Assembly: GCA_918797485.1 (NCBI GenBank)
Contig: CAKKNE010000001.1
Location: 310,001-374,000, forward strand
DNA length: 64,000 bases
Direction of reading: 5' to 3'
From: Pelagomonas calceolata
Taxonomy: Eukaryota
Under the pieces are notes generated by a model that searched no databases, was not told the origin of the DNA, and saw only the letters and a program-made list of their open reading frames with translations. Position 1 is the first letter of the stretch, and every line of letters starts with the position of its first letter. Of this stretch, positions 15,650-55,442 are shown piece by piece. Both the position numbers and the translations under genes were made by a program.

Positions 15650-15760
15650 TTATACCGGCTTTGGAGACTTCTTGAGCTTGCGTGGAGACGGTATGAGGCT
15701 ACGGGCGTAGACGCCGATCGCGAGGCACCTTGACTTGCTAGTGTGTCTGACGCTAGCGAA

Positions 15761-15803
15761 CGGCGGAGTGGTCCTGACGAGGACCCGTTCGCGACTGAGT
15801 AAA
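15761..15803 (+). repeat. Direct repeat, right copy
   Basis: cggcggagtggtcctgacgaggacccgttcgcgactgagtaaa. Confidence 0.85.
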
Positions 15804-15825
15804 ATCCACACCACAACAATCATAC

Positions 15826-17873
15826 TTAAAACAACGAGGACCCTATCGCGCGCGCCATAGAACTCCGTCTCCGGATCTTCGGAGGCCGCTGCTCCCAAGT
15901 CCTAACGAGATCCTCCGGCGGATTCGCGGGCAGCTGGACGTCGGCGGCGCCATCCGCAAGGAGGCTATCGAGGTACCGAATCATGCGCAACGCGCGGCTA
16001 TCGCATCGCAGGTGCCGCGGCAGAACCCGAGACACGAGCGAGAGGCCCTCCATTGTCGTCGCGCGCGAGAGCGCCACGTACACCTGGCCGTCGTCGAAGG
16101 TCTTCGCAGGGTCGAACCTTACCTGTTTCAATCCCATGCCCTGAGATTTGTGGACGGACAGCGCCCAGGCGAGCCGTAGGGGCATCTGCCTCCGCCTCGC
16201 GACGCCGATACCCGCAACCTCCCGCTCGAACAACGTCGCCGTGACAATGACCTCTGATTGCCCCTCGAAGCGACAGACCGGCACGCGAGCGCCCTCAACC
16301 AGCCGATCCACGAGCCACGCCGCCGCGCAGCGGTCTCGACGCTTCACGTGGCTCTTCGCCGCCATGTAGTCATCGCGCGTGAACGGGGCCACGTCCACAT
16401 TCTGACTCATTGACGCCCCGGGCCGCCGCCACAGAGCGTCCTGTGCGGCTTTCGCGTTGCCGCCGCGGAGGGCCGTAGCTACCGTCCTCCAGACCTCGCA
16501 ATCTTCCGCGAGAGTCTCCGCGTCGGATATGGCGCGCGCAAACAGCTCGTCCGGCGTCGCCCAGCGGACGACCTCGCCTTGGGCGCCGTTGAAGAGCGAT
16601 GCTTTGGGGTCGACGTTGGCGAGCATTAGCACGCGGCACCCGACCTTGAGCTGTACCTCATCAATCGCCAGGAAGTCTTTGAAACAGTCGGATACGATAT
16701 CGACGGCGTTCGCTCGCGAAATTTTGTCAGCCTCTTGAAACAGGCAAACGGCGTCGGTCGCGGCCCAGGTCTCGGCAGTGCCCTCCAGCGCTCTGAACTT
16801 CCTGTCGTTCAGCGCATCGGCCTCGCGGTTGCGTGGAAATAACGTCAGGCCCGGACCCGCCGGTCGTAGGCAGTTCTCGTTGAGCTCCTCGCGATCAGAA
16901 GCGTCGCCGACGCGGATTCTGTCGAGAATTCCGCTGAAGACGCGGTCCGCCTGGCGGTAGCACTCCGTCAGCTTCACGTAGTGGAATCTCGCGTCCCAGA
17001 AACATCGCGCCTCGAAGCAGCGACCGCGGGCGCAGAAGAGGGGGCCCAGCTGATTTGTCACGTCCGCGGGATTATCGGCGTCGAACTCGACGCCCTGATC
17101 CGGCTCGTAACTATTCTCGATCGGCGGCAGCTGGAGGAGGTCGCCGCACGCGATCAGCTGGATCCCGCCAAAGGGCCTACTGTCGCCCCGCATCTTGCGC
17201 ACCTCCGCAGCGAGCCGATCCAAGAACTCGCCCGACAGCATCGACAGCTCGTCGATGATCAGATGTTCGAGCTCTCTCCAGAGCAGGGGAGCCTTCTCGT
17301 CGGGCGACAAACCGGGAACGTCCACGCGCTTCTCCCAGATGCGCCCGAAATCCCGCAGCTGCCCGGGCACGCCGACGCCCGCCGCGCGATGAATCGTCGT
17401 GCCGTCGACGTTCGCCGCAGCGATGCCCGTCGGCGCGACGACGGCGACGCGCCGATTAAACTTGTCTCCGTATTGTTTTCGGAACGGCCGATGATGAGGC
17501 GGGTGGTGAATGACTTGCCGGTCCCCGCGGACCCGGTATAGAACACGTTCTTTTTGTCTTCTAGGACCAAGCGGAGCACGCTTCGTTGCGCCGTGTTTGC
17601 AAACAGCAGGTTGCCGGTCTCAAAAGCGGATCCAGACGACGAATGTCGTGCCCTCTTCTGTGGCCGCGGCTGCGGAGGCGGTGGCGCCGATCGCGAGACC
17701 GGCGGCGGCACGGGCGGTGCAGGTGGCGGCGGCGGCGGCGCTACTGGTGGTGCACTTGCAGGCGCGGCGGGTGCCTCGTCGTCGGAGTTATCGATGTCTT
17801 CTCCTTCCTGCTGCTGAGGCACAGCATCAAGTTGGTCCTGGGAGTTCTCAATGGGATCATCAGTCAGTTCCAT
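15826..17873 (-). CDS. PIF1: PIF1-family DNA helicase (one frameshift near 17485)
   Basis: GSAGTGKS, then APTGIAAANVDGTTIH in a shifted frame, IIDELSM, PFGGIQLIACGDLLQLPP, QMPLRLAWALSVHKSQG, GQVYVALSRA. Confidence 0.88.
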
Positions 17874-17926
17874 CGTGGGATCACGCGATGCTGCGCCGGG
17901 ACGCTCAACAGGCCAAGTGGGCAGCC

Positions 17927-19164
17927 TCAGCCACGCCGGCGCGCGAGAGGCGGCACTGAGATTGGTCTTTGACGGGTTTTCGCGGACAAAATGGCCCAGC
18001 GCGCGCCACGCCATCGACGCGAAACGTTAAAAGTCAAACTCACAAAGGCCGTTACCGCAGCCCCCGCCAATCGTTCCAAACGTCGTCCGCCACGCCGCCG
18101 GCGACAGGAGCCCGCCGAAGACCGAAAAGACGACCGCCGCCAAACCACCAGCTTTGGCCAAAGCGCCGGGACCCCTCTTTCGGGAACTGGCGAGGTCGGG
18201 TCGTTGTGGCCCTCGGGACCCGGGGCGACGTGCAAGCCCACTAGCGCGGCGAACGGCACGGCCGCCGCGACGGCGCCGCCCGTCAGAATAATGCGCGAGA
18301 ACTCCCGCTGCAAGAGGATCCGGTGGTCCCGCCTCGTTAAAACCGCAGCGACCAGGCCCGCCGGCACCGCGGCCGACACCGCCAGCGCCGAAGGAGACAA
18401 GTTCGCCCGCAACGAGCGGTAGGCCCGCGTCGACAGGATGTGCACGAGCGTCGACCAGGGGTTGATCTTGGCCGCGGCCTCGACGAACGCGGCGGCGTCG
18501 GGCGTGAGGTCACTCGTTTCAGAAACGGGGGCGCGACCGGGACCTCGTCGTCATCATCCGATTCCTCCCAGACTAAAGCGTCGTGCAAGGGCCGGATCGC
18601 TCGCAGCAGCCCGGGTCGCGTCGCCCACCTTCGTATGGTAGGTCCGAGCTTGTGCAGGATTTCCTCGCGCTCGTGAGAGTCCAAGCGCAGCATCTGGATG
18701 GCGTGAATAAACACGCCGATCCAGTGCTGGAAGTCGACGAGCATGGCTACTTCTGAAGCAGCATCTAAGACAGAAGTGGTCAGGAGCCACCGTTTCAACG
18801 GTGTGGGCAACAACGCGATGGGGCCGCCTTCATTGGCCACATGTACTGAGAAGGCCTTCAGAGCTAGTGTAAAGCCTACCAGGATGTAGCAGATCGGCCG
18901 GCACCATGGCGTCGCGGCGAAGACCCGTAGCAACTCGAAGACGCCCGCGCCGCCGATCAAGCACGCGGTGATGGTCAGGGGCCACAGGGCCTGCTTGTGC
19001 TTATGGGCGTAGCGCTGGAGGGGCTTGTCTTGGCGCATCGTCCCGTTACGCTGCCGCGGCGTCCCGTTACGCTGCGACGGCGTCGACGAGGACGGTGCTG
19101 CTTGGTGTCTGCTAGCACGTCGGCGGCGTCTCGCGGGCGTCGTATGGTTGGCTGAGCCGTTCAT
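17927..19164 (-). CDS. Hypothetical multi-pass membrane protein (frameshift near 18510)
   Basis: Two overlapping same-strand ORFs with hydrophobic segments. Confidence 0.5.
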
Positions 19165-19258
19165 AAAGAGCTTTTAGCCAGAAACCCAGCCGTGCGGTTT
19201 CCGCAGCCCTGTTTAGCGCGAAACAACGCTAAAAAAGCCAGCCAAAAAACAGGCGCAT

Positions 19259-19279
19259 CTAGCGTCGGTAAGGCACTAG
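19259..19279 (+). promoter_or_regulatory. CTAG-bounded intergenic motif
   Basis: ctagcgtcggtaaggcactag, upstream of the gene starting at 19164 (-). Confidence 0.55.
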
Positions 19280-19444
19280 CATCCGTCGCCGAGACGTAAC
19301 AATAATCCTCGAGACGGCTCTGCTTGGAGGGAACTGTGCAGTGAAAGGAAATCGCGACGGCGCGGGTCCTAGCACTATAACAGGAAATCCGCGTAGGCGG
19401 ACGACGCTTTAGAAAAAAGAAAAATACACCACAAAAACAATTAG

Positions 19445-19996
19445 TCAGTCGTCGACGAGCAGCACCTCAACCACAGCACCACAAACGCTCGCGTCGAGCA
19501 CCCTCCTTTTTTCATCCGCCTTGAGCATCGCGTCGACCGCTAAATAAACGGCCCTTTTGGCGTCCGGCAGTCGCTCCAGCTCCCGGTCGCACGCGTCGTC
19601 GCGCAGACGAGTGCGCACCCCATAAATTTGATTCGTGTGCGGCTGGTCGTCAATATCAATCACAACATCAAAACGCGCGGTCAACGACTCGGGCGGCGGA
19701 CCTTCCACAAGTTTCCTCCGCGTAGACGTCCCGGGCGGCCGCGACGACGCCGCGACGCGCACGACGGTTAGGGTCGCGTCCAGCGGCACGCCGTGCTGGA
19801 GCAATGAGAGCGTCTCGCCGACCAGGTCGTCTTTTTTTTCGTCTGGCCCCTTGCGCACGCGCCACTCGTCCGCGTCAAAGATCTTGAAGGACCCGCAGGC
19901 GTTCGCTAGAGCATCTCTAAACTCGTGCAGCGTCCAAGTTAAATCTACTTCCTCTAACTCGTAGGTGGAGCCCTCTAGAGTTGCGGATAGGGGCAT
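19445..19996 (-). CDS. Hypothetical protein, possible ubiquitin-like N-terminus
   Basis: Pattern ELEEVDLTWTLHEFRDALA...TLSLLQHGV..DATLTVV. Confidence 0.5.
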   Translation of the reverse strand: MPLSATLEGSTYELEEVDLTWTLHEFRDALANACGSFKIFDADEWRVRKGPDEKKDDLVGETLSLLQHGVPLDATLTVVRVAASSRPPGTSTRRKLVEGPPPESLTARFDVVIDIDDQPHTNQIYGVRTRLRDDACDRELERLPDAKRAVYLAVDAMLKADEKRRVLDASVCGAVVEVLLVDD

Positions 19997-20133
19997 GGTG
20001 CTGCTTAGCGGTGCCGCGCTCGCTTGTGCAGCGGCAGACGTGTCGGTAGGTGATCACTGCGTCTCGCGTTAAAACGCTGCGCTGCGTGCACGGCCAATCA
20101 AGCTCCAATACAGTCTCGAGCTCGAGCGCGCAC

Positions 20134-20155
20134 CTAGCGTGCCGTAACACACTAG
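20134..20155 (+). promoter_or_regulatory. CTAG-bounded intergenic motif
   Basis: ctagcgtgccgtaacacactag, between divergent genes. Confidence 0.55.
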
Positions 20156-20210
20156 CAAACAGCCGGCATCCGGCGCAACGCCAGCCTGCAAAAGCACCGT
20201 AGGGCAGCCC

Positions 20211-20684
20211 ATGGCCGAGGACCCCATCCACGACGTCCCCGTCGGCCTCCAGCCCGTCCTCCAGGACCTGAGCGAGACGCCGCGCGTCGACCCCTTAAAG
20301 CGCCTCATCGAACGCTACCCGCCCAAGCCGCCGCCGCCGCGAACGAAGGGCAAGGTCGACGCGAAGAAGTTGATATCGCAGCTCCCGGCCGAGACGCTGC
20401 TGTGGCTCCAGGGCCCGCATCGGGAGGTGAATTTTAGGGTGCCGCCGCCGACGAACGAATCGACCGAGGCCCGCGAAGCTAGAATAGCCTGCACGCGGGC
20501 CTGGACCCGGTCGCTGGGGGCCAATCCCGACGACAAGCCCATCTATACCAAACATAGACTGATTCCTACGGAATTTGTGAACCCCTATGCTCCCAAGAAA
20601 GCCGAAGCACCGGCGGCTGCCGAGCCCGCCGCCGAGCCTGACGCCGGCGAAGCGGCCGAAGCGGAGGGCGCCGGCGAGGAGTGA
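20211..20684 (+). CDS. Hypothetical protein
   Basis: ATG ORF with strong GC3 bias. Confidence 0.6.
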   Translation: MAEDPIHDVPVGLQPVLQDLSETPRVDPLKRLIERYPPKPPPPRTKGKVDAKKLISQLPAETLLWLQGPHREVNFRVPPPTNESTEAREARIACTRAWTRSLGANPDDKPIYTKHRLIPTEFVNPYAPKKAEAPAAAEPAAEPDAGEAAEAEGAGEE

Positions 20685-20697
20685 GCGGCCTCGCAAG

Positions 20698-21162
20698 ATG
20701 CTCTGCGTCCTCACGAACGCCTGGACGAGTTCATCTACGGAGGCGTTCCAGGACATGGTCCGGGAGCCGTACTCATCGAAGAACCCCCTCCTGAACCGGA
20801 AGAACGCGACGTACAAGCCCTTCATCGACCGCGCGGAAAAGAGCGGCGTCGAGCTCTTCTTCACGGAGTGCTCGTCTGTTGTGGAGTCTTCCCACGACGC
20901 CAAACCCGAACGGGACCTCGCCAAGGTGCAACGGGACCTGGCGAGCGACGCCTGGTCGGACATCATATGGTGTGGCAAGACGCCGATACAATGCGCGCGG
21001 GACCTCGGGCTTCTTGAGGAAGGGGGTTCTGGTGTCGCGCTGGCGGGCGTGCCGCTCAACGCGCCCCAGCGCACAAACGGGCGGACGCACTGGCCCGTCG
21101 CGGCCGCGGGCTCGAGTATTCCTCGCAAGGACGCCTACGACGCCGTGTTTAACATTCAGTAG
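20698..21162 (+). CDS. Hypothetical protein (or second part of the upstream gene)
   Basis: Coding-like ORF starting 13 nt after the upstream stop. Confidence 0.45.
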   Translation: MLCVLTNAWTSSSTEAFQDMVREPYSSKNPLLNRKNATYKPFIDRAEKSGVELFFTECSSVVESSHDAKPERDLAKVQRDLASDAWSDIIWCGKTPIQCARDLGLLEEGGSGVALAGVPLNAPQRTNGRTHWPVAAAGSSIPRKDAYDAVFNIQ

Positions 21163-21165
21163 TTA

Positions 21166-22004
21166 CTATTCGGCGCTCGTGCGGAGGTGCGTCCCCGCCT
21201 TTTCGCTCCGGATCGGCGCGCAGACCGCCTTGTGGAGTTTCCAGTCGCGGCGCTGGCATATAACAGAGCAATATTTTGCGACTTTGCAGACCCCACAGCG
21301 CAGCGTCGCGTCCTTGCTGCAAGTTGATGAGGAGCAGACACCTAACACGCGCGGCGCCGGCGGCGGCCGCGGCGCCTCGTCGGGCGTCGCGCGGCGGTAG
21401 ATGCCTGGCTTCGTTCGTCGACGTCGTCGCCGCCGAGCGGATTCAGCGTGACCAAGTCGTCGTTCGCTTCTGGTTGCATCGTCGTGAAGTCGAACGAGAC
21501 GCCGCCGTCGTCCCTTTCGGAAACGCGCATGGCGGGCAGCGCGCCGGCGTGGTCGACCGGCGACGGGGGCGACCCCTGCTCCGCATCATCAATCTTGTCC
21601 CACTTGTCGTAGTTCGTCAGCGGCGCGGGCGCCGGTGCGGGTGCCTCAGCTGCCTCTGTCGTAGTTTCAATGAGCTGAGGCGGCGCCGACGATGACGACG
21701 ACGATGCCGGCGCGGCCGCGCTCGCGACGGGCGCCGGCGCCGGCGCCGGTGGCGCCGAGGCACGCGGCGCGGCCGCCGCGAGCGCCGCGCGGCGCGGCCG
21801 CCGCGGCACGGGCAATTTCGCGTCCGCGACCTCCGGCAGCTTTGGGTCATAATCAGGATCCTCGTCGGCCGTGTCGACGCTCTGGAAGTCGTCGTCCGTG
21901 TAGTCCTCGGGGTCCACGAAGTCGTCCTCGTAGCCGTCGTCGTCGCTGTCGTCGGCGTCGTCGTCGTTATGGGCCGTGGGTAGCGCGGCCGCGAGCGCCG
22001 CCAT
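21166..22004 (-). CDS. Acidic/Pro-rich protein with C-terminal MYND finger (frameshifted)
   Basis: C-terminal CSSSTC...CGVCKVAKYCSVICQRRDWKLHKAVC. Confidence 0.6.
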
Positions 22005-22337
22005 GGCTGGCACCGGGGTCTCGATCGTCTGGCTCTGTGGCAGCTAGCGTTCGATCGTCCGGGTCCGCCGCCGAAGCCAGGCGGAGGACTCCAAGGAAAC
22101 GACCGCTAGCCCGTCAGCAGCGATTTAAAGTCGATTTGAGCGCGCGAGACGTCGACGCTCGAAAAGTCTAGTGTGTCGCTACACTAGCCATACCTGGAAC
22201 AGGCGGCGCAGCGCACCACCGACGAGCACCTGGGGCTGCCCCACGGCACCAAAAAGCTCGCCAACGTAGCTTACGCACCGATTCCGGGACGACTGCGGGC
22301 CGTGCTGGGAGCAACCAGCAGCAGGGGCTGCCATGCG

Positions 22338-24090
22338 ATGATGCGACCCCTCGCCTGGCTGCTCCCATGGGCAGCACAAGCCGTCGACTGGTGCCCCGAC
22401 GCCCTCTTCACAAAACCGCCGCCGCCGCTGTCGCTGCCCGTGTTTTTGTCCGCGCCCGGCGACGCCACGCAGCGCGAAGTCGCGTTCCAAGTCTCAATAG
22501 GCGGCTCGGTCGTCGACGCGGCCACGGCCTTCTCCGTGAAGCACGCTATTGGTGAAGACGCGCGCGACGCCTTGGTCGAGGCCGCGCACGCGCGCGAAGC
22601 TAGAGGCGCGCCCGTGGCCCGAGCCGTTGTGATTACGAGCGAGCACGCGGACTGGGCTTTACAAAGGCCGGGGACGCTGCTGGTGCTTGTCGGAAAGGAG
22701 ATGGACTGTGCACGGGCGGCTCACCAAAACGCGTCGGGCCTCGCGGTCGCTCGTACGGAAGACGAGGCGCTTCGAGAAGCCTCACTCATCGAAGGGAGCG
22801 TGGTCGTCGTCGCTACTCAATCTGCACCACAATTGAGTTTGAATGAGGTCCTCGCCGAGCACGAGCGCATCCGGCACGCGCGGGGCGGCGACGGTTCGTT
22901 TGGTGTGGCCATTCCCGACATCTCTGGAGATAGCGTCCTGGCCTTTCCATCAAGCTTATCGGGAGACGAGACCGCTAAGTTTTACCGCGCATGGTGGGCC
23001 GTCGCGCACCTATTCGACGACGTTCAGGAAGAGGACCCGCCGGAAACGCCGCTCAGCTGTGCTGAAACATGTCCCGACATAGCCGTCGTCGTCTACCACC
23101 AGGGCGAGGATGATACGTCTACAAGAGGCACGTTTTTTGAAATCTCGCGAGCTGTGGTAAGGGGGTTAAGGGCGCTGGGCCTACGAGCACGTTTGACGCA
23201 TTGCGTCGACGCCTCGCAGGGCTGCGCCTTTCGTGACCACGAGAGGCGCATCCACCTCGCGACGCACAACCTGCAGGTGTTCCTCGACCTGGCGACGATG
23301 GCGCCACTGATGCTGAAGAGGGGGGACTTCCTGCCCCGCTTTTCAATGGACGTGGCCTTCAACTTCGAGTACGTGCCTAACGTAATAAATGCGACGGAAG
23401 TGGCGGAGGCTTCATCCCAAAAAACGGACCACGTCCAGAACGCTCATGGGTCCTTCGCCACGGCCGTTGCCCTAGCTACCCTAAAAAAGGCGGCGCGCGT
23501 CTGGGACTACTCGCTCGCGAACGTCGAACCCCTCTCGACGTTAACGCGTGTGGAACACGTGCCGCTGGGCTGGTCGACGGCCTGGCGGCCCCATCGTGAC
23601 CTATCGAGGTTGATCCAAGACAAGGACATCCCTATTTTATTTTATGGTACGTTGACATCCAGAAGGAAGCGCACCCTCCAAATGTTGCGGAGCAACGACC
23701 TGCCCATCTTCCATGCCAACGCCCAAACCGACGGCACTTTTGCGCCGGCCTTGGATGCCTTGATCCTGAGCGCCGCCATCGTCTTGGACTTAAAGGCCTT
23801 CGACTCGACAAAAACGCGCGAGTGGAAGATGCCTAGGTTGGCTAAATTACTTGCGGCGGGCGCCTTCGTCGTGAGCGAGGGCGCGTGTGGTGTGGAGCAC
23901 CAGTGTGCGGCGTATGCGGAGGGCGTCGTCTTCACGGACGACCTGGTGGAGACGTTACAATATTATATGGAGCGGCCCGTGGAACGGGCGCGCGTCGCCG
24001 CGCGCGGGAAGGCGTTGTTCGAGGCGCGGACTTTTGGAAGGGTGCTCCGGGGGCCCGTGGAACGGTGGCTTAACAATGTGACTCTGTATT
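22338..24090 (+). CDS. Glycosyltransferase-like protein with signal peptide (3' end uncertain; ORF stays open to 24725)
   Basis: DIPILFYGTLTSRR...AAIVLDL...RLAKLLAAGAFVVSE is a GT-B C-terminal-like pattern. Confidence 0.6.
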
Positions 24091-43626: not shown

Positions 43627-43716
43627 CTCCCTACTCGGCCCGCCGGAGACGTCGCCACAGCTGTCGCCGCCGCCCGCGAGTCGTGCATACTCCTCCCTGG
43701 CTGGATACGAGACAAG

Positions 43717-45008: not shown

Positions 45009-45037
45009 CTAGCGGCTGTAAGACACTAGGACACTAG
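45009..45037 (+). promoter_or_regulatory. CTAG-bounded intergenic motif with duplicated gacactag
   Basis: ctagcggctgtaagacactaggacactag, between divergent genes. Confidence 0.65.
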
Positions 45038-45398: not shown

Positions 45399-46336
45399 AT
45401 GAGCGCCACGGCCACCGCGACGGCGCCGCGCGCCGACCACCCGGATACCATAAGAAGGCGCAAGCGCAGCCCGAGCCCGAACGGCGTCGAGGACACTTTG
45501 AACAAGAAGCTCCAGAAGCACAACTGGTTCAAGGACATCGACCACCTGGAGCTCAACCCCCTGTTTCTGCTGGAGCTGCCCGGGGTTATTTTGCTATCGA
45601 TCTACTACCGGCAGCACTTTAGCTGGAGCGTGATGCCCCACATGTTTGGCATTTATATGCTCAAGGAGATCATTGGCATGTCGGCGTGCTTACATAGATA
45701 CTTCGCTCATAGAGGATTTACGTGTAGTCGATTCGTCCAATTCTTACTCTACTTGGGAGGATCATTAGCGTCCCAAGGCTCCCCCATCTGGTGGGCCTCG
45801 ATGCACCGGCGGCACCACGCGGCCTGCGACACGGACGACGACCCGCACTCGCCCGTCGTCAAGGGCTTTTTCATGGCGTGGATAGGCTGGGTCTACGTCC
45901 CCGGGAACGAGGGCGCGCTCGGCGCCGGGACGGACCGACGACTCGTACGGGACTTACTCGCGTTTCCGGAGCTCGCGATCATGGAGAACCTGCATTTCGG
46001 CGTCGTACTGGCCGCGCACTACGCGTTCTATCGGTACGGAGGCATCCAGTGGGCCCTCTTCGTGAGCGCGTGGTCGAGCATCATCTGCCAGCTCGCCACG
46101 CTGTATTTCAACGCCGCGTTCCACACCCGGACCATGAGGAGGACAGGTTCCCCGGGGCCTGCCAGGCTCGCGACATTCCGTTAGATCCATTATCAAACTT
46201 GATGGGCGAGGCGTACCACCGGTGGCACCACCAGCACCCGAAGGCGTTCCAAAGGCCGGGCCTGGACCTGCCCTACTACCTCTTCATCCTACCTATGCTC
46301 AAGCTGGGCGTGTTCCACGGCAAGAACCGGCTCTGA
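45399..46336 (+). CDS. Delta-9-type membrane fatty acid desaturase (frameshift near 46127)
   Basis: His boxes HRYFAH, HRRHH..DTDDDPHSP, and GEAYHRWHH in the shifted frame. Confidence 0.88.
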
Positions 46337-46396
46337 AGAACCTTCGCTCGCTTTCGCGTCGCTCCTCGAACCCTGTATAAATCACATATCTTAAAC

Positions 46397-47587
46397 TCAC
46401 GTCGACAGGTCCGTGTCCGAGTCGTCCGCCGCGGGCGCGGGCGCCGCGGCCGAGAGGTCCGTGTCCGAGCCATCCGTGTCGGCGCCGGACCCGGGCCGGC
46501 AGACGAAGACGTCCTCGGCCTTCTTCCCGGCCTCCTCGAGGTCCGTGTCCGAATCGTCCGCGGGCGCCGCGGGCGCCTCGTCCTCGTCGGAGGACGTGTC
46601 CAGGATGCATTTCTTCTTTTTTTTCGGCGCGGGCGCGGGCGCCGGCGCCGGTTCGGCCTTCACCTTCGGCGCCGGCGGGGGCACGGGCGCGGGCGCCGGC
46701 ACGGGCGCCGGCGCCGCGTCCTCGTCCTCGTCCTCGTCCTCGTGCCAGGGCCCGACCTTCACGTGGCCGCTAAGCACGCGGCCCTCGGCGCCGGTCCGCG
46801 CGTTCCGCGCAAACCACCACGACTCGTTCGTCGGCCAGACCTCGAGGTTGTCGCCCGCGGCCAGGGCGAGCTGGTTGGCCGAGAGCGGCTCCCAGGCGTA
46901 CCGCGCCGTCGCGCGCTCCGCGCCCGGGCGCCCCGAGGGCTTCGCGGGCGCCTTCGGCCTCGGCGCCGGCGCCGGCGCCGGCTCAGGCTTGACCTTGGGC
47001 GCGGGCGCGGGCGGCGCCGCGGGCTTCGGCGCCGCGGGCTTCGCCGGGGATTTGCGCTTCGCCGGCGCCTTCTTCGCGGGCTTCGGCGGGGAGGCCGCCT
47101 TGCGCTTCTTCGCCGCGGGCTTGCGAGCCTCCTCATAATCAGAGGCTTCGTCGTCTTCGGACGACTCGGGCGCCGGCGCGGCGGCGTCGTAGTCGTCGTC
47201 GTCCTCATCGGATGGGACTGGGACCGGCCGCTTCTTCGCCTTCGGCTTCGCCGTCGGCTTCGGAGCTGGCGCCGGAGGCCGCAGGACGCTCTCCGTGACG
47301 AGCGACTCGACGACCTGCCGGATGTCGAGGTCCTCAACGTCGCCATCTAATTCCCCCACCAAAAACCGCACCTTAAATAACGGCGCGGGCTTGCCGTCCT
47401 CGTCCTCGTAGCAGTCCTCGACGGTGGGCGGCAGCCAGCAGTAGATCGTGCCGACGGACTGCGCCGTCGCCGACGTGCTGCGCACGACCTCGCGGCCGAC
47501 GAAGGCGTGGCCCTCGTCGGTCCAGCCCTCTTCTTTTTCCGCGCGGCTCATCTGCCAGAGCGCGCCGCTCTTTGTTGTGAGGGCCAT
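46397..47587 (-). CDS. SH3-domain protein with Pro/Lys-rich linkers
   Basis: ATARYAWEPLSANQLALAAGDNLEV....SWWFAR....EGRVLSGHV. Confidence 0.75.
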   Translation of the reverse strand: MALTTKSGALWQMSRAEKEEGWTDEGHAFVGREVVRSTSATAQSVGTIYCWLPPTVEDCYEDEDGKPAPLFKVRFLVGELDGDVEDLDIRQVVESLVTESVLRPPAPAPKPTAKPKAKKRPVPVPSDEDDDDYDAAAPAPESSEDDEASDYEEARKPAAKKRKAASPPKPAKKAPAKRKSPAKPAAPKPAAPPAPAPKVKPEPAPAPAPRPKAPAKPSGRPGAERATARYAWEPLSANQLALAAGDNLEVWPTNESWWFARNARTGAEGRVLSGHVKVGPWHEDEDEDEDAAPAPVPAPAPVPPPAPKVKAEPAPAPAPAPKKKKKCILDTSSDEDEAPAAPADDSDTDLEEAGKKAEDVFVCRPGSGADTDGSDTDLSAAAPAPAADDSDTDLST

Positions 47588-47941
47588 CGCTGTGCGCTGA
47601 GCTGGGGTGATTTTGCTCTCACTGAGTCTCAGGTGGCTGCAGGGTTGTGCTCTATGCCGCGGCGTTGACAGCGGAGCTGTCGCAGGCGCGTTTGCGAGCA
47701 GCGAACCGACCAAAGCACAGCGTTATCGTCACGCGCGCGCGTAGGCCACCTAAACCCGTTTAAAAATCAAAAAGCTTCCGGTAACTCGCGGGTTTACATC
47801 GCGCGCCATCTGCGCGCAAGCGGCTAATATCGACACCTGGCACCTCATTGCTAGCGCAAGAAGGCCTGACAGCACGCACGCAGCGGCCACCGCGAAGAAA
47901 CGCGCCACAGATTGCCCAGAGACGCGCCAAGCACAAGCACC

Positions 47942-48655
47942 ATGGCCGAGCTCGACGCCATCCTCGGCAATGATGAAGGCGGCATGGACATGGACATGGG
48001 CGGCACTAATCAAGGCGCGCCGCGGCGGAACCCGGCGTACGAGCAGCTCTTAACCGCGTGGCGGTCGGAGCAGGCCTGCCCGGAAGTGCTGCCCTGGCGC
48101 GGCGATTTAGTAGATGCTTTATTAGATGCGGCGGAGCAGCAGGAGGCCATGGTCAAGGCGACGGTCGAGCAAGGGGGCGACGTCGACGAGTGCTTGTTTT
48201 CGGCGCCGTTGTACGAGAGCGAGCTCGCGCGGTGCCGTTTTGTGGTTGGTTCGTACGTGCGCTGTCGACTACGTAAATTAGAAAGACAGTGCGGGTACAT
48301 CATCGCGGACGACGACGCCTACGGTCGTCTCTCAGACGCCGAAAAGACGCACGCCGTCAAGTACTTGGATTTGATCGAAAAGCACCACCGCGCGTCGTTA
48401 CTCGAAGATCTACCGGAACCCTTCCGCGACGAGCGCAAGGACGGCGACGAGGCCTGCCCCGAGGTGTTGGCCAAAGCTATTTCCAAAGCTCCGGCGTTGG
48501 ACCGCTTCGTCTTCATCAAGGCGAACAAGGACCTGGGGGACGTGCAGATCGATAGTAGTGGCGAGACGGCGTTCATCTCGAAGGGCGACACGCACGCGCT
48601 GCGCTACGGGCCCGTGCGGGATTATGTGCTGGACGGGAGCCTGAGCCTCGTCTAA
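47942..48655 (+). CDS. SLD5: GINS complex subunit 4
   Basis: AWRSEQACPEVLPW, ELARCRFVVGSYVRCRLRKLE, P.LDRFVF, HALRYGPVRDYV..G..SLV. Confidence 0.88.
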   Translation: MAELDAILGNDEGGMDMDMGGTNQGAPRRNPAYEQLLTAWRSEQACPEVLPWRGDLVDALLDAAEQQEAMVKATVEQGGDVDECLFSAPLYESELARCRFVVGSYVRCRLRKLERQCGYIIADDDAYGRLSDAEKTHAVKYLDLIEKHHRASLLEDLPEPFRDERKDGDEACPEVLAKAISKAPALDRFVFIKANKDLGDVQIDSSGETAFISKGDTHALRYGPVRDYVLDGSLSLV

Positions 48656-48852
48656 GTATCTTATGGTTCTCCCCCGGGCTGGTCGACGCGACGCCCTGGA
48701 GCCGGCCGCTTGCGGTACCTCCTCAAACTGGTTACGTCCCGAACTGACGCATCACCTACCCGACCGGTCAAAACCGCGCGCGCGGCTGGTACGCCACGGT
48801 GACGCACTCGGGGTCCCGTGCGAGAGGGGCTAGCCCAATAAGCAACATTCAG

Positions 48853-50213
48853 CTAAAGAATCCTTACTGCCGGTGCCATTTCGACCTCCGCCCGCAACAC
48901 GACCGCGTCGTCCTTCACAAATCCTAAAGCCTCGACCTGCGTCAGGACGACGTGCGCTAGCGCCGCCGTGCCCGCTGATGTCGAGATCTTCTTCACCAAG
49001 TCGGCCTTGGCGCCGAAGACGCGTTTCCCCTCGTGGCGGCGCGTTAGGTGCGCGCCGCCGTCCTGATGTAATAATGACAGTTCTAAGGCAGCCACCTTGG
49101 CCGTGGAATCGGGCGACGGCGCCGCGTAGTGCACGTATAAAGATACAAATCCGGGCCGCTCCTTCTTGATACCGCCCTTGTAGAGGTCGAGGGACCAGGG
49201 CGCGGGCCCGGGCGGTCTATAACGAGCGCCTTGCCGGAAGCCGGCCGGCAACGAGGACCAGCGTTCGACCCTCCAAGTGACGACATGCACGTCCCGCCCA
49301 TCGGACGTCTTTCTAAGTGAAGCGCCCGACTTGAACGTCTTGGGCGACTCGGAGCTATACCCGTAGTCGCGCCAGGTAGCCGCGCGACTCGCCTTCCGCC
49401 GGTGTTAAGCCGGCCGCATCTAATCTACCTTGCCGTTCTCGCTCCGTCCAGAGCGCCTTGTGCGCGCCGCAGGGGCACTCGAGGCGTCATTTTCGAAACC
49501 TTTCTCTAAACCAGTCCGTGAACGCGGGCCCACCGACGCTCGTGAAGCCGCCCTCCCGCTCGATGTACGACGCCATGGCCGCGTCGTCGGCGGCCAACGC
49601 TCTCGCCTTTAATTGTTGCCACGACGGCGCGCGCCGGCCGGCGCCGCAGCGCCCTTCGATGAGAGTCGTCCCGCGCCCTTCTAGGTGCCGGGGGCGGCTG
49701 TGTACGTCGAGGCTGCGCACTGACAGCTCGTCTTGGAGGTGGAGGCTGTTGCGCCAGACGGGCCGCCGCGTCTCGGGACAAGTCCCGGATGCGAGGCGCA
49801 TCATCACCACGCGCAGAACGACGACCTCTTTCCCTATGTTTGCCCGCCCGCTTCTCGGCCTCCCGCCGCTCCGCATACGTCATTTTCTTCTTCGCAGGTT
49901 CCTTCTCCCTCGCCTCCTTCATGGCCAACCAAGAACTTCGGGCGGACGTGTCCCGCGTCGACGGTCGTGATGCCCTTGCTGATGATGAATAATCTTTGGA
50001 GTCACTTCTTTCGCGAGACTTCGACCGAAAGAACGACGCCGCGCGCGCCACGCGAGACTTCGACCGCGCCGGTCTTTCTGAAGACCCGAGCGTCTCGTCG
50101 ACCATGGCGGCAAAAGCAGCATCGTCCAGGGAATCCTTGCGCTTCTTCTCCTTCGATCTATGTAAAGCTAAGTCGAACGAGAACTTGCGGCGGGGGCTGA
50201 GCGCGCGGAGCAT
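48853..50213 (-). CDS. MATH/TRAF-domain protein (frameshifted 5' part)
   Basis: VTWRVERWS..WSLDLYKGG..FVSLYV..GFVKDDAVVLRAEV. Confidence 0.6.
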
Positions 50214-50472
50214 GGTGCCGTCGATTTCGTGTGACGCTGCGGCGGCGGCGTGTCTCACAGGTGGTCTCCGCCAGCCGTCCGCGCGTCGGCGGTGTTTAAT
50301 TGGTTCTCTGAAAGCACCGGGTGCAAGTGAGAGCCCTTTGTTGCGGTGCTCGGTGGCAGCGCTGCGTGGTCTGGCGTTTTATGGCTTCTCGGGGCCTCGC
50401 ACCGGGCACGATTTGGAGCTCAGCGGTGGATGCTGGAGGTCAATTCCCGCCGATTTTCGAGCACCGCTCAAG

Positions 50473-50494
50473 CTAGCGGTATGTAAGACACTAG
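50473..50494 (+). promoter_or_regulatory. CTAG-bounded intergenic motif
   Basis: ctagcggtatgtaagacactag, between divergent genes. Confidence 0.65.
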
Positions 50495-50646
50495 GCACAG
50501 GTTTTTCCGGCCGCATCCGTCGCGTAAAGCCTCTAGGCTCGTCGCAGTGGCCGTGCAAGCGACGCAGAGAAACCTGCTGCGACTTCGTTGCTGGGGCAGC
50601 GCCCACGAGCATCCATACGCGGCGGGGCAGCACCCCCACTCAAAGC

Positions 50647-51267
50647 ATGCCGCCGAGGCGACAGCGGCAGCGCAAGGCAGCCACGCCCGCGGCCACAAAC
50701 GGGGCGCCGCCGCGGCCGGCCGCGCCCAGCAGCGAGGACGAATTACTGCGACGGGCCATGGAGGAGTCGCGCCGGACCGCCGCCGCCGCGCCGCTCTCGG
50801 AGGACGCCGAGCTGCAGCGCGCCCTCGCCATGTCGGCGCAATCTTACACGGCGGAGCAGAGCCAGCGCAAGGCCTACGAGCGCTACGCGGCGCCGGCGGG
50901 CGCGGTGCGGGCACCGCGACACGCCGCGCCGCCGCAGCCGCCGGCCAGCGCCGACCTGGCACCCCTCCACGCGCTGCGGCAACGGGCCGAGCAGGCCGTG
51001 TCCGAACGACGGCAGCGCGAGGCCAAGCTCGCCGAGTTGGCAAGACGGCCGCCGGCCATCCAAGCCGCGCCCGACGTCGCGCGGCTCATGGACGAGCTTG
51101 GTCTGTCGCACTTCCTGCCGCTACTCCTCGCCGAGGAGGCCGCGGACATGGAAACGTTGATATGTCTGGAAGCAGGAGACCTGAAGGATCTGCTCCTGCC
51201 GCTCGGGGCGCGGACGAAGCTTTTGTATGCGCTCAAGCACCCGGACTGGCGGCCCAGGTATAAGTAA
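50647..51267 (+). CDS. Protein with two UIMs and a C-terminal SAM domain
   Basis: SEDELLRRAMEES and SEDAELQRALAMS; LMDELGLSHFLPLL...DLKDLLLPLGARTKL. Confidence 0.75.
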   Translation: MPPRRQRQRKAATPAATNGAPPRPAAPSSEDELLRRAMEESRRTAAAAPLSEDAELQRALAMSAQSYTAEQSQRKAYERYAAPAGAVRAPRHAAPPQPPASADLAPLHALRQRAEQAVSERRQREAKLAELARRPPAIQAAPDVARLMDELGLSHFLPLLLAEEAADMETLICLEAGDLKDLLLPLGARTKLLYALKHPDWRPRYK

Positions 51268-51300
51268 CAACAGATTAGCTTAGATACAGGACGGCGACGC

Positions 51301-52544
51301 CTAGAACGCCGCGAGCGACGACTGCGACGCCGTCCGTAATGGCGGCGCGGCGAAGCGCTCGCGCAGCCACCGCACATAAGGCCGCTCGACGTGGACCTCG
51401 TACAGCGCCGCCAGCATATACAGCGTCAACGCGAAGGCCACGAAATTCTCCGCGTGATCGCTCGTGGGCAGGCCGAGGCCGTAGAAGACGGCGTGGACGG
51501 GCCACTGGAAGAGGTAGACCTCGAAGGAGCACTTGCCGATTGATGACAAAGCGGGATGGGCAAAGAGTTTTGATGCTTTCGAGGCTGCGGCCGTGTCGCG
51601 CGCCGCCGCCCACAGAAATACGGCGAAGAGCGGCGCTAGCCCGTGGTCGTACAGGACCTCGCCGTGCTCGCGGTAGTCCAAGTGCGGGTTCGGGACGAGG
51701 AGCACGGCGAGCGTTATGATGAAGACGGCGCCGTCCGCGAGCCAAGCCGTGTTTTCTCTTGACGAGCGAGCCGCGAGCTCGGCACTGACGCAACCCAACA
51801 GAAAATCCGCCAACTGCGCCGGCGGCCAGAGGTAGAGCGCCGTGTGGGCGGAATTGTTGAAGTAGGCGCCCGCTCTCAAGCCACCGGAGACGAATAGCAA
51901 CGCTATCAAAGACGGTACGATTGCGAGGACGACCGCCACGACCATCAAATGCCGTCGCTCGTAGAGGAACGGGTCGTAGAGCACCGGATAGAGGAGCCAC
52001 GACGGCGCAAGGGCCGCGACCGTCCAGGACTGGCCGTCGGGGCACCACCGGTTCGGGGACCGCCACCTGTGTGGAAATCAAGTCGCGTCGATGGCGTGGG
52101 GCGCCCGACATTTGATTTCCACACAGAACGCCACGGTTCTACGAGAAACGCACAAAGCGTCAGGTGCATCGCGTCCAGGTCGCCGTTCCCACCCAGATAC
52201 AATAGGATAGCGGACACGCCCATGGCCAGCCACACCGCCAGGAGCACGCGGCCGAAGCGCCGCCCGTACCAGCGCTTGGCGTCAGGCCAACGATTCGCCG
52301 ATTGCGAGAATTTACCGCGCGCCGCCCAGTGCGTCACAAAACCGCTCAGCACGATGAAGTAGTCCACGGCGCAGTTGCTCCGCCAGAGGCTCTTTACCAA
52401 CGGGCCGTCGCTCGAGTGCGGTAAGAAGTGCTGGCACACGATCCAGAGCGACGCTAACCCGCGCGAGCCGTCAACAAAAGGTAGGCGCTTGCGCGGCGGC
52501 TGGGTCTCGGCGGTGGGTTGTTGCGGGATGGCGTCGTAGGCCAT
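51301..52544 (-). CDS. Acyltransferase-3 (OafA-like) membrane protein; exons 52544-52135 and 52066-51301
   Basis: DGSRGLA...H, AVDYFIVLSGFV, RRFGR, SWT, IGKCSFEVYLFQWPV, VERP. Confidence 0.88.
52067..52134 (-). mobile_element. Introner copy 10 (68-nt GT-AG intron; element 52067-52126)
   Basis: TSD accgccac/aacgccac (7/8); perfect 15-bp TIRs; removal restores VEPWRSPNRWCPDGQSWT. Confidence 0.92.
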
Positions 52545-52971
52545 CTTGTTATTTGAGAGTTGTGCGGTGCACGGCGCCGACCGCAGCGAGGCGGCGGAGA
52601 GCTGGCAAGTGAGAGCTGCAGTGGTGCTGACGCTTGCGCGGCTCGGCACGTGGAAAGCGATGGTGGCAATGGCCTGTGCACTGGCGAGACTACGATGCCC
52701 GGCGTAGAGCGTCCGACGACCACTTGTGGCCGAGTTTGAGCTGTCTAAAGCCGCGCCCAATGCGAAGGCTAGTATATCTATAGACGCTAGCAACGCCATC
52801 GGCGCAAAAGCAAGCAAACTCGACTGTGCGCAGGCAAGCGCCGCGTTCAGACGCGCCACCGGTCCTTCCAGACCGCTAACCGACGTTGCACGCGTCGCCG
52901 CCGCCGCCGCGCACCGCTGTGCCCCGCTTGACTCGAGCGAGGCAGCGCCAGCCGCCGCGGCACCGCAGACC

Positions 52972-53616
52972 ATGTTCCGCCAGCGCTCGTCCGGCGAGAT
53001 TCCCATGCACCACTACGGCGGGCGACCAGCTAGGGCCTCCTTCCGCACGCCGCGTTTACCAAGTTGCGCGACGGGCGGGTCGTGGGCGTGGCTCGTCATT
53101 TCACTGGCGGTGATTGTGTGGGGCATCCGCTTCCTCAGCCAGCCGACGGATCTGAGACATTTGAAGTGCCCCAGGGATCGCGAGGATTTGTGTGAGCTCG
53201 TAGTCCTCACGGAGGATGAAGATCGAGTGGTCCACACGTTCCCGGGCAAGGATTTACTCAGGGCCGAGGCTATCAGGGTAAGGAGGGGCCGGGCGGTGAA
53301 CCCGAAGAACATGCGGCGGAAGCAGGTGCGGAAGTTGGGCTACTCGTTTCAATTAGTGGTGCGCCTGGACGACGACGGGCGCGAAGCGAGACACGTCATG
53401 TCCTACGGGTCCGTCGGTAGGAGCGACTCAAAATCACGTGTCTCCGAGATCCAGGAGTACGTCACGAATAGTGATGTGAGCGGCCTGGACGTCTACGAGT
53501 CGTCGGGCGTGTCCGCGGTCGGCATCCTGCTGGTCATCTACGGCGCCTTCTCGCTCATCTTCTGCCTCATCCTGGGCCAGTTCTCGGAGCCGCCGCCGCC
53601 GCGGAAGCGGCGCTAG
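52972..53616 (+). CDS. Hypothetical two-TM protein
   Basis: ATG ORF with two hydrophobic segments. Confidence 0.65.
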   Translation: MFRQRSSGEIPMHHYGGRPARASFRTPRLPSCATGGSWAWLVISLAVIVWGIRFLSQPTDLRHLKCPRDREDLCELVVLTEDEDRVVHTFPGKDLLRAEAIRVRRGRAVNPKNMRRKQVRKLGYSFQLVVRLDDDGREARHVMSYGSVGRSDSKSRVSEIQEYVTNSDVSGLDVYESSGVSAVGILLVIYGAFSLIFCLILGQFSEPPPPRKRR

Positions 53617-53622
53617 TTGTGT

Positions 53623-54063
53623 TTAACTTGATAACTTTAACGCCGACGCGACGTGCGCCGGCCCGCCTCCATTATAAGCGTCGTAGCCGGCGTCGCGTAG
53701 AAGTCCGGCCGCCTTGCCGCCGCGGCCGCCCGAGCCGCAGTGCGTGACGACCGGCCGATCGCGGGGCAGGGCGAGGCCCGCCGCGGCGACGGCCGCGAGG
53801 AACTCCTCCTGCGTCGTCGGCCGCTCGCTCTGCCTGGCACCGTCGATATTGAGGGGGACGTGCACGGCGCCCGGGACCGACGCCGGCGGGCCGCCCTTGC
53901 CGGCCGCGACCTCCGCGGGGTCGCGGACGTCGAGAATCACAGGATCGTCCAAGCCCGCGAGGACCACGGCGTCCGCGACGTTCGAGGCGAAGCGGACCGT
54001 GAGCAGGCGCCGCGTGCCGCGCGGCTGCGCCGCGAGGGCGGCGAGGGCGCGGACGATACGCAT
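53623..54063 (-). CDS. Single-domain rhodanese / sulfurtransferase
   Basis: VILDVRDPAE, PGAVHVP, active loop CGSGGR. Confidence 0.85.
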   Translation of the reverse strand: MRIVRALAALAAQPRGTRRLLTVRFASNVADAVVLAGLDDPVILDVRDPAEVAAGKGGPPASVPGAVHVPLNIDGARQSERPTTQEEFLAAVAAAGLALPRDRPVVTHCGSGGRGGKAAGLLRDAGYDAYNGGGPAHVASALKLSS

Positions 54064-54210
54064 TGAGATGGGGTGCAGCCCCTTGTCTGTCGTGTTGATG
54101 TGCCACAAGCGCTTCCGCGGCGTCGAGGCGTGCACAGTATGTCCGATTTTGTAGCAATGCTAGCGCTGGCGGCAAGGGAGGCAAATTGAGGCTGCCCACA
54201 CAGCAAAAAC

Positions 54211-54265
54211 AACACGGAGAGCAGAAGCAGATGCAAAACACGGAGAGCAGAAGCAGATGCAAAAC
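54211..54265. repeat. Perfect 26-bp tandem duplication
   Basis: aacacggagagcagaagcagatgcaa x2. Confidence 0.85.
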
Positions 54266-54546
54266 GCCTCACCCATCCTAGAAAAACATCACCTCTCGGC
54301 GCTTGCTCGCGACAAATGCCCGCATTGGCACGACGAGAAAGCGAATCGCATCTCTGAACCTGACTGAGAGCGCCGCGCTCCAGCCAAACTCACGGGCCGC
54401 GACGTTTGCTGCGCGCGGCCTTTGTGAGCGCACACGCACTAGGCTTTCGCTGCGCGCGGGGCAGCCCGCGACCTTTGTGAGCGCACACGCTCCCTTGGTG
54501 AGGGGCAGCCCGCAACCTTGCCAGGGCCCAAGCGGAGAGCGTCACG

Positions 54547-55235
54547 ATGCCCGCCGGCGCCGCCGAGGACTTCGTGGCGAAGTGCCGGGAGCACAAGCTG
54601 GACTTCGTGGTCTTCGTGCGGCACGCGTCCTCGGCGCCGCTGCACGCGGGCGCCGCGAAGCGCGCGGAGAAGCCGCACGACTGGAAGATCGCGACCAGAT
54701 GCGCGTGCTCACGCAGAAGGGCAAGGACCAGTGCGCGGCCGCGGCCTGGTTCCGCGAGCTGGACGTGCGGGCGGCGCTCACGTCGCCGGCGCGCGCAGCG
54801 CCCGAGACGGCCATGCGCATGACGGACCGGACCGAGACCGAGGAGCAGAAGGTGGGCTCTATATATTTACGCATGGTCGCCGGCGTGCACCCGGCGGGCA
54901 TGAGCGAAACCTGCGAGGCGCTCTTCGAGACCATGGGCTACGGGCCGCGCGCGCCTTCTTCTTCGAGGCGGCGGGCGGCGAGGACGCCTTCCAGGCGTAC
55001 GGCGACGCCGTCTGCGCCGAGCTCGCCGCCGCCGCGGTGCCCGCCGGCGACGGCGGCGGCCTCGCCGTCTTCGGCCACGCCGTCTTCCTGAACGCGATCG
55101 CTTATAAAGTAGCGCAAGCAGCGGGGGCGCGTCCGACGACGCGCGAAGGCGGCGCTGCTCGACATGGACCTGGGGGAGACGCAGGGCATCCGCGTGTCGA
55201 TGAGCGGGGACGTGGCGAAGTACCCGCTCGCGTGA
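54547..55235 (+). CDS. Histidine phosphatase (PGAM-like) family protein, several frameshifts
   Basis: FVRHA, then RVLTQKGKDQC..LTSP, then AVFGHAVFLN, each in a different frame. Confidence 0.6.
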
Positions 55236-55420
55236 GTCTATTAACAGTATGGTTTATTGATACGCGGTCTCCGTCCGTTGCGCGTCAACGGCGTCCGGGG
55301 GTGGCGTCGATTGGTCGTCGTCGGACTCGTACACGTGACTGTTTGCGTTGCGTAGGCGTCGCGCGAGGACAGCTTTCTGTTGGGGCAGCCCGGAAGGCGT
55401 CGAGCAGGCATTGCCGATTG

Positions 55421-55442
55421 CTAGTGCCTTACAGCCCGCTAG
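55421..55442 (-). promoter_or_regulatory. CTAG-bounded intergenic motif
   Basis: Reverse complement is ctagcgggctgtaaggcactag, upstream of the MFS gene. Confidence 0.6.

Follow-up and report, generated by a model that had tools for sequence, protein, structure and literature searches.

The human Staf/ZNF143 binding site (SBS) is an 18-bp sequence that is over-represented in bidirectional promoters and occurs in 938 human promoters, and a single SBS is enough for transcription in both directions, according to the available part of the report (PMC3082894). In mouse, the motif of Zfp335, a multi-finger protein with 177 target genes, is bipartite, with two conserved parts and a variable spacer making up 22 bp, and lies just upstream of starts (PMC4371841, as excerpted). 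Among stramenopiles, promoter elements have been mapped mainly in oomycetes. There, INR (YCAYTYY), FPR (MWTTTNC) and DPEP (SAASMMS) are 7 nt long, sense-oriented and located at or after the start, and an orientation-free CCAAT box lies upstream of the start at a median of 83 nt (PMC3599244).

Here we describe an element that recurs in a 64,000-nt stretch of the Pelagomonas calceolata genome (contig CAKKNE010000001.1, positions 310,001 to 374,000; hereafter the window). P. calceolata is an abundant open-ocean alga, and the literature searched yielded neither a description of this element nor any pelagophyte promoter element. Lineage-specific sites that open chromatin and position starts at many housekeeping promoters are familiar from yeast (Reb1/Abf1/Rap1) and Drosophila (DRE/DREF), DRE being a palindrome read by a transposase-derived dimer. 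We propose that the Pelagomonas element is probably an orientation-independent, start-site-proximal site of a putative general promoter factor, working like the ZNF143 sites of humans.

A recurrent palindromic element in the window

The original prediction was of a recurrent CTAGCG motif, and its pattern is matched exactly six times in the window (19259, 36347(-), 41759, 45009, 50473 and 55421(-)), compared with a mean of 0.00 and a largest count of 0 in shuffled sequence; the copies at 20134 and 28243 are one base off. When scored with a two-block matrix, the training set of which consisted of metagenome copies only and was independent of the window, all eight strong copies reach 32–40 bits, and resampled windows contain no matches at 25 bits or more. 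The weaker copy proposed at 15738(-) is also borne out, at 19 bits. At a 10-bit threshold the null gives 1.8 matches per window, and support for 22168 and 52769 therefore comes from adjoining RNA ends: the first scores 11 bits, and the second, at 10.6 bits, is a new find. The copy proposed at 6658 is dropped, since it scores below 10 bits and the codon model places it between convergent genes. The window total is thus eight strong and three weak copies, listed here with a possible degenerate site and the neighbouring RNA ends.

15738–15756, minus strand: weaker copy, with the start of the MYND-TPR gene (15649) 89 nt downstream; an RNA contig starts 31 nt beyond the copy (15707), and on the upstream side the PIF1 contig stops at 15810.
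19259–19279, plus strand: strong copy lying antisense to its downstream gene, a minus-strand ORF that begins at 19164; RNA 5' ends on the minus strand fall 41 nt (19218) and 31 nt (19228) from the copy.
20134–20155, plus strand: strong copy in the middle of a divergent promoter; a minus-strand 5' end lies 31 nt from it (20103) and plus-strand 5' ends lie 21 nt (20176) and 32 nt (20187) from it, the two strands' ends being 73 nt apart.
22168–22187, no strand assigned: weak copy, its 7-bp outer arms perfect, in the middle of a divergent promoter; 5' ends at 22130–22135 (minus) and 22209 (plus), 74 nt apart.
28243–28262, plus strand: strong copy between divergent flavin oxidoreductase and homoserine dehydrogenase genes.
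36347–36368, minus strand: strong copy; the gene downstream, with an alanine-racemase-N domain, starts at 36180, and RNA 5' ends lie 40 nt (36307) and 31 nt (36316) from the copy.
41759–41780, plus strand: strong copy with the 3' end of an HSF/PHD transcript (contig to 41715) on one side and a pseudouridine synthase gene (start 41955) on the other; no 5'-end pile among those listed.
45009–45029, plus strand: strong copy in a divergent gap, right end duplicated (to 45037); on the minus strand a 5' end lies 29 nt away (44980), and on the plus strand 5' ends lie 117–123 nt away (45146/45152).
45111–45127, no strand assigned: possible, uncertain degenerate second site below 10 bits, with two CTAG 13 nt apart, before a desaturase transcript; 5' ends 19 and 25 nt beyond.
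50473–50494, plus strand: strong copy in the middle of a divergent promoter; the 5' end on the minus strand lies 23 nt off (50450) and the contig on the plus side begins 32 nt off (50526), a separation of 76 nt.
52769–52790, minus strand: weak copy (10.6 bits), missed in the original prediction, in a divergent gap; a contig ends 14 nt away (52755).
55421–55442, minus strand: strong copy ahead of an MFS gene (start 55650), to which it is antisense; no 5'-end pile among those listed.

The consensus from the copies, (A)G-CTAGCG-GCCT-GTAAGACACTAG-C(AAGC), is an imperfect palindrome of 22 bp, the right arm AAGACACTAG and the left arm CTAGCG(G/T)C(C)T being degenerate inverses of each other. The spacing claimed for the strong copies is correct: 16–18 nt from CTAG to CTAG, that is, 12–14 nt between them. 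Spacer length differs among copies over 2–5 nt, a variation that is unusual for a rigid dimer. Outside the element, TTTT (read outward) occurs at 6–33 nt in 56 of 232 arms, as against about 12 in more distal windows. The element also contains GTAAG and ends in AG.

An apparent likeness to the D-loop or A-box of tRNAs was not borne out by ARAGORN or Rfam scans. ARAGORN found three tRNAs in 121 metagenome loci and one in the window, the latter not overlapping a copy, and Rfam gave no match in the window and 19 of the 121 loci.

Further copies and their flanks

A metagenome scan returned 123 further copies with all-different flanks, their shared sequence extending no further than about 2 nt on the upstream side of the element and about 5 nt on the downstream side; since these copies were chosen by exact match, their conservation is overstated. 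Four of the 123 lie inside coding segments as called by the codon model. Among the rows listed for proteins of these loci, one of six matched had the same sequence as a named protein of P. calceolata, and four of ten had no match in the collection. Viral contigs contain no exact match; a looser pattern hit 12 stretches with unrelated inner sequences, which we judge to be chance. Two matches in prokaryote genomes fall at the ends of short contigs in which bacterial-type genes run into an algal-type fragment, and are judged chimeric.

In three homologous, putatively orthologous promoter pairs the element keeps its position, with spacers that differ in length; in one pair (L019/L121) identity of the downstream gene is 89% at the DNA level and 85% at the protein level. 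The occurrence of three such pairs among 123 copies leads to an estimate of about 2,500 copies genome-wide (95% range 860–12,100), and window density to one of about 3,000, with a genome size that we take to be 31.7 Mb. The element is estimated to be present at a quarter to 40% of P. calceolata genes.

An estimated copy number in the thousands, a palindromic shape and CTAG at both ends could also be the mark of a transposon footprint or minimal relic (inverted ends that became joined, or an insertion flanked by duplicated CTAG targets) which has gathered in open promoters without a present role. A MITE or cut-and-paste transposon has a target-site duplication and a shared body between its terminal repeats, and the element has neither, nor shared flanks: direct repeats of 2–9 nt flank it at chance level (120–121 copies), and the flanks differ in 123 of 123 copies. 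A Helitron 3' end is CTRR followed by T, with a hairpin some bases upstream and shared internal sequence; in 121 copies the base after CTAG is C in 96, G in 17, A in 8 and never T, and the upstream flanks are unrelated. The genome does contain active-looking introner-like inverted-repeat elements (PMC9481584). However, an introner is an insert of about 200 bp that is spliced from RNA, while the element is 22 bp long and outside RNA, and the introner-like repeats of the window end in a different sequence. We thus consider a relic without function very unlikely, and argue for function because the element is kept at homologous promoters and its distance from 5' ends is fixed. It may still have arisen from a transposon and been co-opted later.

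Genomic context and orientation

The element is enriched in divergent promoters and nearly absent from convergent gaps. Fifty metagenome gene gaps hold a copy, 30 of them divergent, 19 tandem and one convergent, as compared with 16, 29 and 16 among all 61 gaps of the window (Fisher p = 5e-4 for divergent and p = 3e-4 for convergent gaps). In the other gaps of the metagenome loci it is present in only two of seven divergent and none of 25 tandem ones. The five window copies that had been placed between divergent genes are confirmed there, and 52769 makes a sixth.

The element is also orientation-independent. The neighbouring gene points away in 58 of 79 cases on its left side and 60 of 77 on its right (p = 0.58), and in tandem gaps the element is sense in 15 cases and antisense in nine (p = 0.31). 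Our analysis corrects the original prediction here, in that the strand of a copy is independent of that of the downstream gene: the gene after 19259(+) is on the minus strand, and the one after 55421(-) on the plus strand.

Occurrence in both orientations, and outside the mapped RNAs, argues against action through structure, as a DNA cruciform or RNA hairpin. As RNA, the reverse strand does fold better than the forward one, via G-U pairs (mean -9.2 versus -5.9 kcal/mol), but DNA folding is weak (-2.2 and -3.3 kcal/mol). The search pattern fixed all but one pair, which was therefore the only one testable, and it does not covary: right-arm G goes with left-arm C in one of 16 copies, and A with T in 32 of 107. 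A structural role is therefore highly improbable.

Spacing to RNA 5' ends

Stranded RNA reads, all from one sample according to the record of the raw runs, give 12 listed clusters of 5' ends, from two tables that continue for 20 and 6 more rows; these are fragment ends of polyA RNA-seq and not cap-mapped starts. Eight of the 12 lie 21–41 nt outside the edge of a copy, one lies 117 nt from a strong copy, and three (54195, 54383–54393 and 18559–18561) have no nearby element. Of nine listed clusters in element-holding gaps, eight fall within a 25-nt window (p ~7e-9 under a uniform null, the window having been picked after seeing the data). In three divergent pairs the element sits mid-way between 5' ends that are 73, 74 and 76 nt apart. 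With the start-site and shared-flank tests both favourable (none of the 123 metagenome copies showing longer shared flanks or a target-site duplication), the proposal of a general promoter element or dimeric site is supported; an element of nucleosome-free regions had been suggested as a further possibility.

The same reads bear on whether the element might instead be a terminator, roadblock or splice-donor signal. Upstream contigs end 44 nt (41759) and 54 nt (15738) before it, as a terminator might cause. However, a single convergent gap among 50 is contrary to this reading, and read depth is 1–2 in the bin of the 19259 copy against 32–82 in neighbouring bins, with no raw-read joint among those listed at this or any other element position. 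We regard such a role as extremely improbable; a bound factor could block read-through as a side effect.

The label of core-promoter element, also part of the original prediction, fits as regards proximity to starts, but the element is not universal: it is present at 17 of 39 gene starts in the window and absent from 22, and its orientation independence is unlike classical core elements. In a stronger form of the idea, the binder would belong to the basal machinery (SNAPc-like, or a replacement of the TATA platform) and place two pre-initiation complexes directly, without a separate activator step. The tightness of the offset and of the start-to-start spacing, and the annotation of a SNAP43 gene in P. 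calceolata, are consistent with this, as is the lack of enrichment of known core motifs in 235 arms. The TATA box (TATAWA, about 30 nt upstream of the start) has eight matches there versus 5.7 expected, and the oomycete INR, FPR and DPEP have 36 versus 32, 29 versus 51 and 116 versus 105, respectively. Nine of the 29 FPR-like matches are in the first 20 nt and overlap the T-tract. Against a true core element, more than half of the window gene starts do without it, the offset to the 5' end spreads over 20 nt, and the orientation bias that is usual for core elements, by the available account in PMC3599244, is not seen here. We hold this alternative to be decidedly unlikely.

Putative mode of action and significance

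Under the reading that we prefer, as the site of a general promoter factor, a putative factor bound at the element would open the promoter and fix starts some 20–40 nt to either side. It may be a protein in which two DNA-binding units, linked or dimeric, read two CTAGYG half-sites, and tolerance of spacer length suggests that the link between these units would be flexible. One element could serve both genes of a 75-bp divergent promoter, and nearby T-tracts may help to exclude nucleosomes or seat the basal machinery. A bolder version, which we think rather unlikely, is that thousands of Pelagomonas genes have exchanged TATA/INR logic for a single symmetrical core element of 22 bp. A lineage-specific factor (possibly transposase-derived or SNAPc-like) would read it and place polymerase II directly, at a set distance to either side, which would make the 75-bp stretch a complete two-gene promoter. 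Among the P. calceolata annotation entries listed (to within contig 6), there is no BED or THAP Pfam entry.

With an estimated 2,500–3,000 sites and starts about 30 nt to either side, the element offers a handle on transcription start in a compact genome. It can be used as bait for finding its putative factor and to mark gene starts for annotation in wild populations, and the region around it is a candidate 75-bp two-way promoter for genetic tools.

Comparison with known promoter elements

The element and the oomycete promoters are alike in being stramenopile and without a TATA box, and the CCAAT box, as described in the available text of PMC3599244, is likewise orientation-free. However, the element matches none of INR, FPR and DPEP, has no CCAAT and lies closer to the start than the 83-nt median given there. 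Its size, spacer tolerance and symmetry set it apart from the short core motifs known in relatives. The Reb1/Abf1/Rap1 and DRE/DREF sites are shorter and unrelated in sequence, with a fixed spacer in Abf1.

The Zfp335 motif, as far as the excerpted text of PMC4371841 describes it, is similar in its 22-bp length, bipartite build and variable spacer, but Zfp335 has only 177 targets. The SBS resembles the element as a long site enriched in two-way promoters. The element is nevertheless not an SBS, since CCCR is required at SBS positions 3–6 (PMC3082894, available part) and the Pelagomonas consensus has no CCCR core. The SBS sequence is unrelated and not palindromic, that part of the report notes no variable spacer, and the SBS protein is known. 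The SBS also differs in reach, with 938 human promoters as against an estimated quarter to 40% of genes for the Pelagomonas element.

Copies in the window and in metagenomes

The eight strong copies of the original prediction hold up, scoring 32–40 bits with a two-block matrix trained on outside (metagenome) copies only, and the CTAG pattern matches six times in the window versus none in 100 shuffles, with the copies at 20134 and 28243 one base off it. The commonest CTAG–CTAG spacing within the window is 18 nt (n = 6). On the same matrix the copy at 15738 scores 19 bits, and those at 22168 (11 bits) and 52769 (an additional copy, 10.6 bits) lie near the noise, which at 10 bits amounts to 1.8 matches per resampled window. 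The proposed copy at 6658 is rejected because it scores below 10 bits and sits within a convergent gap. The window is gene-dense, with a G+C content of about 64%, and the genes around the copies are functionally unrelated, as had been claimed. One window protein falls into a 90% cluster together with a named P. calceolata protein. PIF1, homoserine dehydrogenase, SLD5 and a phosphate transporter follow the order of the published P. calceolata gene table, in the portion available (PMC9481584).

A metagenome scan yielded at least 123 copies in at least 121 loci, one protein of these loci having an identical counterpart in P. calceolata. The consensus of the metagenome copies listed is (A)G-CTAGCG-GCCT-GTAAGACACTAG-C(AAGC), with the preceding G in 102/123, the following C in 96/121 and CAAGC in 33. 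Of these 123, 80 have a 4-nt spacer, 36 a 3-nt and 7 a 2-nt one; in looser-matching copies it reaches 5 nt. As the bases of the 4-nt spacer are G/T, C, C, T, the left arm CTAGCG(G/T)CCT is degenerately the inverse of the right arm AAGACACTAG, with GT at the centre.

Three homologous locus pairs surround listed copies, one with a downstream gene 89% identical in DNA; within pairs the position of the element is kept and spacer length differs. Because metagenome copies were picked by exact match to the pattern, these pairs say more about retained position than about how strongly the element is constrained. The three pairs found in the 123 copies listed suggest some 2,500 strict copies genome-wide (range 860–12,100), and window density, with an assumed genome size, suggests about 3,000. 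Viral contigs gave no exact pattern match. Prokaryote genomes gave two, on short contigs in genome bins (L122, L123), at whose ends an algal-type promoter and gene start are joined to bacterial-type genes; we judge both contigs to be chimeric assemblies.

If the element were a transposon relic, longer shared flanks would be expected, as the original prediction pointed out. The 12-nt flanks differ in all 123 copies listed, and among listed copies no common body and no target-site duplication of 2–9 nt were found; the base following CTAG is never T, and introner ends have a different sequence. Derivation from transposon ends, with later co-option, may still apply. Introner-like repeats and members of an expanded gene family occur in the window as follows.

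7333–7476: introner-like repeat
24690–24875: introner-like repeat, sharing 14-bp terminal inverted repeats and an inner palindrome with 7333–7476
11798–11884: introner-like repeat
60301–60441: introner-like repeat
12863–14041: MYND-finger/TPR gene
14525–15649: MYND-finger/TPR paralogue, convergent with the former and alone of the two in having the element upstream

Several metagenome loci hold copies related to these repeats, and several hold additional members of the MYND-finger/TPR family.

Gene context and orientation

A codon model, with 29 window ORFs as its training set, served to call coding segments. Genes flank 58 of the 123 copies listed on both sides (33 divergent, 24 tandem, 1 convergent) and another 40 on a single side; for 21 no gene is within reach, and the model places 4 in coding sequence. 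With a higher calling threshold and loci below 900 bp excluded, 50 gaps in the listed loci hold the element (30 divergent, 19 tandem, 1 convergent), versus 16, 29 and 16 among window gaps; the single convergent gap argues against a terminator. Genes face away from listed copies on the left in 58/79 and on the right in 60/77 codon-model calls, thus the orientation of the element is of no consequence. The median distance from listed copy to coding edge is 150–167 nt.

As to the suggestion of a "general" promoter element, a copy lies within 400 nt of 17 of the 39 window gene starts (a strong one in 12 cases), and 22 lack one. The remaining gaps in listed loci, holding the element in 2/7 divergent and 0/25 tandem cases, also count against universality, although part of these 25 may be introns.

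RNA 5′ ends

Stranded polyA reads were mapped to 36001–56000 and 15401–22600; their 5′ ends are fragment ends rather than caps, and according to the record all raw data come from a single sample. The predicted enrichment near transcription starts is apparent in these fragment ends, 8 of the 12 listed clusters lying 21–41 nt outside an element edge and 3 being without element.

RNA 5′ ends relative to the element
19218/19228, 20103, 20176/20187, 22130–22135, 22209, 36307/36316, 44980, 50450: clusters 21–41 nt from element edge
45146/45152: cluster 117–123 nt from a strong copy, 19–25 nt from a degenerate CTAG pair
15707: RNA contig end, 31 nt outside element
50526: RNA contig end, 32 nt outside
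52755: RNA contig end, 14 nt outside
22202: RNA contig end, 15 nt outside

Of the nine listed clusters in gaps that hold the element, eight fall within a 25-nt interval (p ~7e-9 under a uniform null, the interval being picked post hoc). Three divergent pairs have the element midway between 5′ ends that are separated by 73, 74 and 76 nt, and the plus-strand copy at 19259 lies upstream of a minus-strand RNA. A terminator or splice donor is also opposed by the low RNA depth across this copy and by the lack of raw-read joints at these sites among the rows listed. Action as a hairpin gains from better RNA folding of the reverse strand; against it stand the location of the element outside the RNAs, its presence in both orientations and the lack of covariation at the single testable pair.

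At 41141–41603, 49349–49642, 54795–54956 and 18529–18530, most reads differ from the window by clustered substitutions and 1-base insertions, so that some ORFs may be split by sequence errors or by allelic differences.

Neighbouring sequence features

Reading outward, TTTT occurs 6–33 nt from listed copies in 56 of 232 arms (flanks), versus 32 for AAAA and about 12 for TTTT farther away, the excess being mostly on the left arm. In 235 arms there is no enrichment of TATAWA, INR, FPR, DPEP or CCAAT. The palindrome GGGCWGCCC has 15 matches in 235 arms versus 0.95 expected, at no fixed distance.

5865, 12844, 20202, 22233, 54459, 54503, 55383, 61488: GGGCWGCCC in the window

Five otherwise unrelated loci (L020, L033, L045, L080, L112) have in common a 25–45 nt stretch upstream of the element (AGGGCTCCCGCG..TTA..AAA type), possibly a composite promoter module. 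A G+C-rich 87-nt stretch, 92% identical between loci L009 (1228–1314) and L082 (358–443), lies downstream of the element at differing distances and has no Rfam match. No known RNA was matched in Rfam by the window or by the 19 loci searched. A second short motif, AAACCCG(T/A), has 11 window matches on both strands (including 17972, 39015, 47752 and 61607) and sits upstream of genes without the CTAG element, namely PIF1, an EF-hand/HSF divergent pair, SLD5 and an MFS gene; it is reminiscent of the AACGG cell-cycle element.

Proposed mechanism

Sequence, symmetry, placement and spacing to 5′ ends are direct observations; the scheme built on them is, in our view, probable. A putative dimeric or two-domain protein would bind both CTAGYG half-sites, tolerating 15–19 nt between CTAG starts, and would open a short region, aided by flanking T-tracts, so that polymerase II would initiate some 30 nt away on each side that has a gene. 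The stronger form, in which the basal machinery would use it directly as a core element, seems to us rather improbable. SNAP43 is annotated in the P. calceolata gene table, and contigs 1–5 of supplement 4 list TFIIE, TFIIF, TAFs, BRF1 and SNAP43, with no row for TBP (PF00352) or canonical TFIIB, which may lie on contig 6 (PMC9481584); as the table portion searched lacks most of contig 6, nothing is concluded from their absence.

Comparison with known systems

The element is real and probably a lineage-specific promoter element, apparently not described before. Yeast general regulatory factors and the Drosophila DRE are analogies to it. A literature search, with most subscription journals outside its reach, found no description; the main text of the genome paper contains neither "motif" nor "promoter", and the examined portions of its readable supplements hold no promoter analysis (PMC9481584). 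Judged from the available parts of the papers cited, the element is none of the oomycete INR, FPR, DPEP and CCAAT elements (PMC3599244). It shares its shape, 22 bp with a variable spacer, with the mouse Zfp335 motif, without being a member (PMC4371841). The human ZNF143 site, which is enriched among bidirectional promoters and suffices to drive both directions of transcription, is again not the same element, and the likeness would be in the way of working (PMC3082894).
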